Below are positions 1 to 1,250 of a DNA stretch of 17,815 nt, piece by piece. The first letter of the stretch is position 1; each line of letters starts with the position of its first letter. The notes under the pieces are model-generated. The model made no database searches, was not told where the DNA came from, and worked only from the letters and a program-made list of their open reading frames with translations. The position numbers were made by a program, and so were the translations under genes. Source of the stretch: Candidatus Lloydbacteria bacterium RIFCSPHIGHO2_02_FULL_50_18 (GTDB taxonomy: Bacteria > Patescibacteriota > Minisyncoccia > Phycocordibacterales > UBA6899); NCBI GenBank assembly GCA_001821395.1, contig MHLM01000011.1, positions 1 to 17,815 of the forward strand. The letters are read 5' to 3'.

Positions 1-1250
1 GTGAAAATACAATGGGGGTGAAGATGCCCTCTACCTGCAGCTAGACGAAAAGACCCCAGGAGCTTTACTGTAGCTTGATATTGCGTGTACGTGCTCATTG
101 CGTAGCATAGATGGGAGAGGTTGAGACATAAATTTCGGTTTGTGTGGACTCGTCAGTGAAATACCATTCTTTGTGTATGTACATGCTAACCTGACCGGCA
201 AAAACGGGCGGAGACAGTATCTGGCAGGCAGTTTAAGTGGGGCGCTTTCCTCCTAAAAAGTAACGGAGGAGTTTATTAAGGTTGGCTAGGCGCGAATGGA
301 CACCGTGCCGATAGTGCAATGGCAAAAGCCAGCTTAACTGCAAGACGTGAATGTCACGCAGACGCGAAAGCGGAACATAGTGAACCGACAGTTTGCATTA
401 GACGCAGCTGGAGATTATCTGATAAAAGTTACCCTGGGGATAACAGGCTAGTTCTGCCCAAGAGTTCATATCGACGGCAGAGTTCGGCACCTTAACATAT
501 CGGGGTGCCATACAAGTAATTGTATTAGCGATTGGTATTATTCGGGCGCAAATGAATCATTGGCGCTCGGTGAATAACAATAAAAAATTAGTGGCTTATA
601 ACGGTGAACTCCTTAATAATGAACACATTAAGGACAATGCCGTGGGAAGTTTCTTCACAAGAACGTGATCATACATTCTTTCGAGAATGTAACGGCACCG
701 ACTATTTATTTAGTGGTGATTGTGTTGATAACCCTGTAGAGACTTGGAACGTGAAGTTCCGGAGTTGTGATCATGAGAAGATCGCAGCTAATACGCCAAC
801 GCCTTTCTTGATCGAAAGGATGAAGACATAGTCCGAACCTTCTGGTAACAGAAGACAAATACGACATTGCGATGTCGGCTCATCTTATCCTGGGGCTGGA
901 GAAGGTCCCAAGGGTTTGGCTGTTCGCCAATTAAAAAGATACGTGAGCTGGGTTCAGACCGTCGTGAGACAGGTCGGTCTCCTATCTGCTGCAGGCGCGG
1001 ATTCTTGAAGAGATTTGCTTCTAGTACGAGAGGACCGAAGTGAACTGACCTCTGGTCTACCTGCTGTCACGCCAGTGGCACCCGCAGGGTAGCTAAGTCG
1101 GGAAGGGATAAGCGCTGAAAGCATCTAAGCGCGAAACCCACTCTAAGATAAGGAATCGTTGAGACTCGTGAGAGATGATCACGTGATAGGCTTTAGGTGT
1201 ACGCACAGCAATGTGTTCAGCCAAGAAGTACTAATTTGTCGAATTTATTG
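1..1250 (+). rRNA. rrl: 23S rRNA, 3' portion (5' end lies outside the window), interrupted by an intron at 493..869
   Basis: Aligns by eye to E. coli 23S domains V and VI. Matching stretches include GACGAAAAGACCCC, GGATAACAGGCT, CCCAAGAGTTCATATCGACGGC, GATGTCGGCTCATC, TGGCTGTTCGCCA, GAGCTGGGTT, GTCGTGAGACAG, GCTGAAAGCATCTAAGCG and the terminal GTACTAAT. The 3' end was placed approximately from the GTACTAATTTGTCGAA motif. Confidence 0.9.
493..869 (+). other. Group I intron inside 23S rRNA at about U2500 (E. coli numbering, peptidyl-transferase loop); no homing endonuclease ORF
   Basis: The bacterial 23S consensus GGCACCU|CGAUGUCGGCUC is split by about 377 nt. The 5' exon ends in U492. The intron ends in G869 (omega-G). 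A putative internal guide sequence GGGGTGCC at 502-509 pairs with the exon GGCACCT, placing a U:G wobble at the splice site (P1). P7-like strands are GACTA (698-702) and TAGTC (828-832). The 3' strand AAGACATAGTCCG matches the group I consensus AAGAUAUAGUCC. Confidence 0.8.

Follow-up and report, generated by a model that had tools for sequence, protein, structure and literature searches.

The 17,815-nucleotide (nt) stretch of DNA analysed here, hereafter the window, comprises positions 1–17,815 of contig MHLM01000011.1 from Candidatus Lloydbacteria bacterium RIFCSPHIGHO2_02_FULL_50_18 and begins inside a 23S ribosomal RNA (rRNA) gene that is interrupted by an insert of 377 nt at positions 493–869. 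We conclude, with a probability of roughly 0.88, that this insert represents a genuine group I intron located at site L2500, that it belongs to a single bacterial intron family and lacks the LAGLIDADG_2 gene carried by part of that family, and that it is spliced by the standard group I pathway.

Window positions 1–1255 correspond to the 3′ part of a bacterial 23S gene (Rfam model LSU_rRNA_bacteria, model positions 2036–2925, 712 bits), and the alignment to this model contains one large insertion of ca. 380 nt within GCACCU^CGAUGUCgGCUC. Reading of the sequence places the insert between the upstream exon GGCACCU (486–492) and the downstream exon CGAUGUCGGCUC, which starts at 870; the borders 492/493 and 869/870 are fixed and no sliding is possible. 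A preliminary description, made from the letters of the window alone, had proposed the same split of GGCACCU/CGAUGUCGGCUC by 377 nt and had recommended an alignment to a 23S reference. In the annotated E. coli 23S gene of locus L128, which spans positions 573–3476, GGCACCT ends at 3072, and therefore the insertion lies exactly after E. coli U2500, i.e. at site L2500. The consensus structure given with the Rfam model shows ACCU|CGAUGU as unpaired residues of the domain V central loop between helices H89 and H90; the intron thus resides in the single-stranded loop at the catalytic centre of the ribosome, the peptidyl-transferase loop. A related 23S gene (L003, see below) is uninterrupted at U2500 and reads ...GTTCGGCACCT|CGATGTCGGCTCATC... 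across the site. Because the intron interrupts the 23S gene at U2500, rRNA callers will mis-size this gene. The three parts of the locus are as follows, all features in this and the following lists being given on the + strand and in window coordinates:

1..492, + strand: 23S rRNA 5′ exon, from model position 2036 to E. coli U2500; its last 7 nt, GGCACCU, are the exon strand of P1
493..869, + strand: group I intron without homing-endonuclease gene, 377 nt, precisely missing from related 23S genes
870..1255, + strand: 23S rRNA 3′ exon, beginning with C2501 and running to the 3′ end (Rfam LSU model)

The intron has a full group I secondary structure consisting of the paired segments P1, P10 and P2 to P9 with P7.1/P7.2, a P3/P7 pseudoknot with a bulged-A guanosine site, and the terminal guanosine ωG869. 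Its elements, joining segments (J) included, are:

487–493 with 502–508, + strand: P1, with the guide GGGGUGCC at 502–509 and the 5′ splice site after U492
497–501 (guide AUAUC) with 871–875 of the 3′ exon (GAUGU), + strand: P10, 5 bp including one G·U
511–515 with 520–524, + strand: P2 hairpin with GUAA tetraloop 516–519; compensatory changes in 4 of 5 pairs
ca. 531–581, + strand: P2.1-like extended hairpin in the P2–P3 interval, predicted by minimum free energy folding
592–595 (UGGC) with 795–798 (GCCA), + strand: P3, 4 bp, from the alignment fold
601–606 with 638–643, + strand: P4, enclosing P5
610–617 with 627–634, + strand: P5, short and without a P5abc extension
644–660 with 720–735, + strand: P6/P6a, enclosing the 59-nt L6 interior 661–719
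G739(A740)GACU744 with AGUCC 830–834, + strand: P7, with A740 bulged; crosses P3
745–750 with 756–761, + strand: P7.1, a hairpin between P7 and P3′
763–772 with 780–789, + strand: P7.2, a hairpin between P7 and P3′; pairs 771–781 and 772–780 from sequence reading only
802–807 with 814–819, + strand: P8 hairpin, from the family alignment
820–829, + strand: J8/7, AUGAAGACAU, preceding the P7 3′ strand AGUCC 830–834
839–844 with 849–854, + strand: P9 hairpin with GUAA tetraloop 845–848; 5 of 6 pairs compensatory
862–867 with 872–877, + strand: hairpin across the 3′ splice site, 6 bp (CGACAU/AUGUCG), with ωG869 in its loop
869, + strand: ωG, the final intron nucleotide, followed by C870

The window intron was aligned (A1) with 10 relatives that likewise carry no open reading frame (ORF). 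The U492·G503 wobble at the 5′ splice site, formed with the guide GGGGUGCC as the preliminary description had recognized, is part of a P1 helix whose 7 pairs are invariant in 11/11 sequences, and the pattern GGCACCT-N(3-20)-GGGTGCC has a single match in the window and none in 200 shuffles. All five P10 pairs are formed in the window, three of them without variation across the family. Equally in line with that description, which had noted an ωG and a P7 3′ strand with a flank near the group I consensus, the intron ends with G869 and contains AAGACAUAGUCCG at 823–835; J8/7 together with the P7 3′ strand (820–834) is the most conserved segment of the core. P7 is 100% paired in the alignment, including one G-C to A-U swap, and G741-C833 is the putative guanosine-binding pair. 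In P7.1/P7.2, 10 of the 14 counted pairs are compensatory in the family (P7.2 counted over 763–770 with 782–789), and the two outer columns of P3 covary in relatives (A1 columns 110–396 with C-G and G-C, 111–395 with C-G). A longer P3 obtained from a constrained fold (597–599 with 791–793) was rejected, as position 792 varies freely in relatives and is uncompensated. The predicted P2.1-like hairpin is a lineage-variable element which is missing in the shortest relatives and partly common to L107, L123, L105 and L157.

The fold was assessed by comparative tests of different kinds. RNAalifold applied to A1 returned P1, P2, the long-range P3, P4, P5, P6/P6a, P7.1, P7.2, P8 and P9, with compensatory changes in 43 of 78 pairs. 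For the pair counts the pseudoknotted P7 and P10 were added to this structure and 82 pairs were counted; the same pairs with their 3′ partners slid by 1–3 columns served as control. Standard pairs were found in 95.2% of the A1 cells versus 38–43% when slid, the former percentage being inflated because part of the structure comes from the same alignment; both-sided changes occurred in 44 of 82 pairs versus 13–19 when slid, and the observed pairing measures were reached by 0/500 shuffles. The slid controls, a leave-one-out model and the comparison with the nearest homologue mitigate the circularity. For the leave-one-out model, 29 relatives (alignment A2) but not the window supplied the 3′ domain, which extends from P7 into the 3′ exon; the resulting covariance model (R1) gave on the 17.8-kb window a single match at 722–877, which is full length, scores 125 bits (E = 8.7e-32) and contains 0 non-canonical pairs. 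A metagenome scan yielded the nearest homologue, L157, an intron of 360 nt with 80% identity to that of the window; the two differ at 11 of 79 paired positions, 9 differences being compensatory, 2 one-sided and 0 broken. These data demonstrate that the fold is of the group I type and is maintained by selection, and thus, with a full fold and strong covariation, bear out the initial proposal of an ORF-less group I intron in the peptidyl-transferase loop.

Several points weigh against this assignment in addition to the circularity mentioned above. A scan of the window at gathering thresholds did not list the Rfam model Intron_gpI (RF00028), suggested in the preliminary description as a check; its 41 bits lie below the gathering cut-off of 50 bits, which is an operational cut-off and not a structural definition. 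With an E-value threshold applied to the segment 440–930 (491 nt), the model matches 516–855 (E = 3.9e-9, 41.0 bits), and the suggested check thus falls short of the cut-off. The score remains below 50 because the Rfam alignment mis-pairs P7: it puts the P7 5′ strand at GACUA 700–704, introduces a 93-nt insertion thereafter and leaves P3 unpaired. We rejected this placement, as family conservation, covariation and model R1 all locate the strand at GAGACU 739–744. In favour of the assignment, four A1 homologues at the same site score above the cut-off (L070 61.6, L105 60.8, L083 50.3 and L023 50.1 bits). Against it, P3 of the window measures only 4 bp and has a G591/A799 mismatch, P6a contains two U·U mismatches, and the hairpin 862–877 competes with P10 for the 3′ exon and could, as modelled, sequester the 3′ splice site. 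Its strands CGACA/UGUCG are kept in the sub-family whose introns end with ...CGACAG.

The intron is optionally present among close relatives. Among 31 contigs from metagenomes that share the H89 exon context, the most similar exons (ca. 95%) are those of L131, L139, L152 and L159, which are intron-free at U2500, and L157 with 92.5% exon identity carries the homologous L2500 intron; intron-plus and intron-minus alleles thus both occur in close relatives, as is characteristic of a mobile intron. Contig L003 (ENA ERZ27254767 k141_2561400) is 100% identical to window positions 1026–17815, yet its part matching the window upstream of 1026 (L003 10439–15510) contains a different 23S gene, whose 5′ exon is 91% identical and which has no L2500 intron. 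This gene harbours one insert of ca. 479 nt at window 962/963 (ca. E. coli 2593), another of ca. 966 nt at window ca. 1026 in the sarcin-ricin loop, where a LAGLIDADG_1 ORF was found together with a weak match to group I, and a further LAGLIDADG_1 ORF 5′ of these two inserts. The difference between L003 and the window reflects either intron polymorphism at the level of strains or a chimera in the rRNA assembly. In contig L005, which derives from an independent sample, the same intron/3′-exon junction is found (window 850 onwards, 99.95% identity). Identical flanking genes recur in several samples, including one whose name refers to the groundwater data set Anantharaman 2016 (ANAN16). A 23S relative in L142 (1553–1590) reads GGCACCTCGAT, followed by the non-rRNA sequence AAATCAGC..., which suggests another insertion ca. 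4 nt downstream, at site ca. 2504.

For delimiting the family, one genome per GTDB species was scanned with the pattern CGACGGNNNNGTTNGGCACCT-N(3-20)-GGGTG, which combines the exon context with the P1-forming guide, and at least 119 loci were obtained; the family counts given here and below refer to the matches listed. The same intron core at U2500 is present in 111 of 119 loci, and both exon borders were recognized by the exon pattern in 86, with intron lengths of 259–876 nt. The motifs ACGGUG, CCGUGGGAAG and GAAGAUAUAGUC are common to all L2500 introns listed (GAAGAYAUAGUC is also present in the window). L025, L030, L056, L104, L011 and L042 fit the search pattern without having an intron core and were discarded as chance or unrelated matches; apparently giant or split introns in Eremiobacterota and other loci were likewise dismissed, as BLAST places the 3′ exon ca. 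290 nt downstream in most of them. The insertion site, the membership of the window intron in this family and its patchy presence among close relatives are thus established.

According to record titles, which may be unreliable for Third Party Annotation metagenome-assembled genomes (MAGs; L121 is titled as an archaeon), 42 of the at least 111 core-bearing loci belong to Patescibacteria and 69 lie outside, among them Actinomycetota (20), Eremiobacterota/Vulcanimicrobiota (14), Gammaproteobacteria (9) and Chloroflexota (7). The hosts include the complete soil-MAG chromosomes OY970293.1 (Solirubrobacterales) and OY970223.1 (Eremiobacterota) as well as the Gammaproteobacteria-titled Coxiella endosymbiont of the tick Ornithodoros (NZ_VFIV01000003.1), whose L2500 intron measures 832 nt. 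With 69 core-bearing loci outside Patescibacteria, the intron alone is a weak lineage clue, contrary to what had been surmised before; nor is the ribozyme compact, as had also been suggested, 377 nt comparing with family members down to 259 nt. The closest introns to that of the window reside in Patescibacteria-titled MAGs, and the window exons are closest to Parcubacteria/Yonathbacteria 23S genes (80–88%); exons and intron sub-family together point to Parcubacteria-like Patescibacteria as judged from sequence relationships. The window intron is unexceptional within its family, whose mobile introns are common among uncultured bacteria.

Some members of the family deviate at their 3′ end. In 21 of the 86 complete L2500 introns (L014, L016, L017, L018, L033, L036, L045, L048, L065, L066 and L067, and further L071, L075, L077, L079, L080, L082, L086, L087, L088 and L123) the nucleotide directly before CGAUGUC is an A, the borders being fixed, and the last 8 nt are often devoid of any G. 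P7 (GAGACU/AGUCC) is unchanged in the seven A-ending members aligned in A2, and among the loci listed such introns were found only in MAGs titled Patescibacteria, Gammaproteobacteria or unclassified. They may represent a natural ωA lineage; a Coxiella intron that, by the title of its report, is said to lack ωG is the sole precedent cited.

No endonuclease gene resides in the window intron, as no ORF exceeds 75 residues. Two ORFs of the intron, the first being the longest, were considered:

604..831, + strand: 75-residue ORF, not a gene; traverses conserved ribozyme helices, no Pfam match
552..668, + strand: 38-residue ORF, not a gene; traverses conserved ribozyme helices, no Pfam match

A Pfam search (E ≤ 0.1) with both translations gave no match, which agrees with the absence of an endonuclease motif from the 75-residue ORF stated earlier. 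In contrast to the window copy, 30 family members are ca. 770–876 nt long and encode a protein of 186–241 residues in the P6 loop. Two of these ORFs match PF03161 (LAGLIDADG_2; E = 1e-38 and 2e-36), and I-SceI is the solved structure to which the endonuclease is closest (E = 3e-12). Intron positions 93–160 and 236–377 of the window copy align to positions 84–150 and 705–840 of the ORF-bearing L091, leaving a slot of ca. 75 nt in the window versus ca. 550 nt in L091. Tblastn of the relatives' ORFs against the window intron produced weak matches (E ≥ 0.001) on RNA-conserved segments. The 38-residue ORF (...DNAVGSFFTRT) was considered as a vestige of the endonuclease N-terminus MDNTVGSL, which is indistinguishable from constraint on the ribozyme core; DNAVGSF is no proof of a vestige because this stretch is the P5′/J5/4/P4′/P6 core. 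Judged from the pattern in the family, the endonuclease ORF was presumably lost rather than primitively absent, in agreement with PMC11270868. The window copy is no longer mobile by itself because it has no endonuclease gene, and is not itself a homing element.

From the structural model we infer catalysis, splicing in vivo and the tertiary contacts, and propose the following scenario. The pre-23S transcript would fold into P1–P10, and an exogenous guanosine would dock at G741-C833 of P7, beside the bulged A740. The docked guanosine would then attack the phosphodiester after U492, which is held by the U492·G503 wobble in P1. Subsequently, ωG869 would take over the same guanosine site, and P10 (497–501 with 871–875) would align the 3′ exon, so that the 3′-OH of U492 could attack after G869 and join U2500 to C2501. 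With ligation, GGCACCUCGAUGUCGGCUC in the central loop of the peptidyl transferase would again be uninterrupted. The core is probably stabilised by P7.1/P7.2 and by the GUAA tetraloops L2 and L9.

The most serious alternative, which we nevertheless regard as unlikely, is that the group I fold exists without self-splicing and depends on a protein cofactor, for instance an RNA chaperone of the host or a LAGLIDADG protein of the maturase type whose gene lies elsewhere, e.g. in another rRNA intron. Such a dependence would fit the short and mismatched P3 and the U·U mismatches in P6a, the loss of the relatives' ORF, the presence of LAGLIDADG_1 ORFs in other 23S introns of a closely related assembly and the maturase-like LAGLIDADG protein reported for a Thermotoga 23S intron (PMC3984707). 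It is opposed by the intact core, in which all 79 tested pairs are kept relative to L157, and by the ORF-less members of 259–400 nt, which are frequent across the family; the RNA is thus not generally tied to its own ORF.

With much lower probability, the hairpin 862–877 in competition with P10 would make ligation slow or conditional, and the intron would act as a brake on 23S maturation from the single gene and thereby on growth; in the extreme case some ribosomes would keep the insert. If this were true, the intron would not be a neutral passenger.

It is hardly more probable, indeed slightly less so, that the 377 nt are never spliced, being either retained in mature 23S rRNA or excised without ligation like an RNase III-type intervening sequence (IVS), resulting in a fragmented 23S rRNA. 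Precedents exist, by the titles of the respective reports, in a Simkania 23S group I intron described as unspliced, a further point to the detriment of the splicing intron proposed here, and in bacterial IVSs. However, the site lies in the unpaired central loop beside A2503–U2506 and not at a helix tip as described for the IVS sites 23IS2 and 23IS4 in PMC11270868, and every group I element is present, including ωG and the P1 and P10 pairings with both exons. The insert is not the simple stem-loop at a helix tip, devoid of a ribozyme core or guide, that characterizes an IVS or expansion segment, and selection keeps its pairings, which would be pointless in a spacer. The remaining alternative, an assembly chimera or decaying rRNA copy with the intron as an inactive relic, could be invoked from the independent contigs that break nearby (L004 ends at window 897, L005 at 850) and from L003 with its abrupt change to another 23S gene at 1026, but is scarcely credible given the same junction in L005 from another sample, the intact exons with a normal LSU-model score, the conserved core without a lost nucleotide and the same intron type in the 92.5%-identical 23S gene of L157 with structure-preserving changes only.

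A splicing L2500 intron of the proposed kind has several counterparts. P7.1/P7.2 between P7 and P3′ are associated with an IA-type architecture, and the site-2500 chloroplast intron of Chlamydomonas humicola encodes I-ChuI. The chloroplast intron Ft.rrl.6 of Floydiella terrestris (PMC2997540), compared here by its description only, is located at the same site after E. coli 2500, is of nearly equal size (381 vs 377 nt) and is also ORF-less. It differs in being organellar and in its assignment to subgroup IB by the authors, whereas the window intron has P7.1/P7.2. The layout of the latter comprises P7.1/P7.2, a short P5, P2 and P2.1; no IA/IB subgroup is given because the site-2500 intron Ft.rrl.6 was called IB by its authors. 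A literature search for introns by the site names L2500 and site 2500 retrieved nothing.

Among bacteria, known 23S introns occupy the sites L1917/L1951 in Coxiella, L1931 in Thermotoga and Simkania and L1917/L1931/L2593 in cyanobacteria (Haugen et al. 2007, PMC1995217; PMC3984707). They resemble the window intron in being of the self-splicing type at conserved 23S sites, and the Synechococcus L2593 intron is described with the same layout, P5 and P2 both being short and P7.1/P7.2 forming an extension (PMC1995217). Unlike the window copy, which has no ORF, they often encode LAGLIDADG proteins; they are inserted elsewhere, and their single-motif LAGLIDADG proteins contrast with the LAGLIDADG_2 (I-SceI family) of the window's relatives. 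The omega intron of yeast mitochondrial 21S rRNA likewise belongs to group I and lies in domain V of the large-subunit rRNA, and its I-SceI and the endonuclease of the ORF-bearing relatives both belong to PF03161. Site and host are different and the window copy has no endonuclease gene; the protein likeness concerns the relatives and not the window RNA.

The closest parallel is found in the candidate phyla radiation (CPR). In Tsurumaki et al. (2024, J Bacteriol, PMC11270868), 968 insertions are catalogued in CPR 23S genes, 45% of them called group I by Rfam; the sites 23IS6–23IS14 cluster around the peptidyl-transferase centre, with ORF-bearing and ORF-less versions at the same sites. Compared at the level of the region, these introns share with that of the window the host type, the group I character in domain V and the patchy spread, and moreover the occurrence of ORF-less and LAGLIDADG versions at one site that are highly similar outside the ORF. 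The paper treats such introns as a peculiarity of CPR, whereas the L2500 family is found here in many MAGs that are non-CPR by title. As the class has been catalogued in CPR 23S genes and site-2500 introns are recorded from chloroplasts, the window intron adds to a known kind: group I introns of the CPR peptidyl-transferase centre with and without ORF are already known, and this is one more.

The remainder of the window was inspected in passing. Downstream of the 23S gene, an AT-rich spacer of ca. 350 nt is followed by tRNA-Arg(TCG) at 1606–1678 (ARAGORN; Rfam 34 bits), which stands between 23S and 5S rRNA (1762–1873); a tRNA match is likewise placed between 23S and 5S in the Yonathbacteria MAG L085. 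A 365-residue ORF at 3084–4181 carries an AAA_28 domain and, at its C-terminus, a CYTH domain. At 13620–14731 an ORF of 224 residues for an IS200-like Y1 transposase (matched Pfam domain of ca. 120 residues) precedes one of 121 residues, to which the precomputed gene tables assign no Pfam family; this pair also adjoins the SHMT gene in the independent JGI contig L002.

As regards the window, the intron is of little consequence; it provides one more ORF-less copy, consistent with loss of the endonuclease gene. Of modest value is the well-supported secondary-structure model now available for the bacterial L2500 intron family, whose members are under-scored by the general Rfam model via the mis-pairing of P7. 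What may count for more is that about a quarter of the complete copies end in A in place of ωG, and that the family is widely spread, which suggests a weaker restriction of bacterial rRNA introns to particular lineages than is usually claimed.

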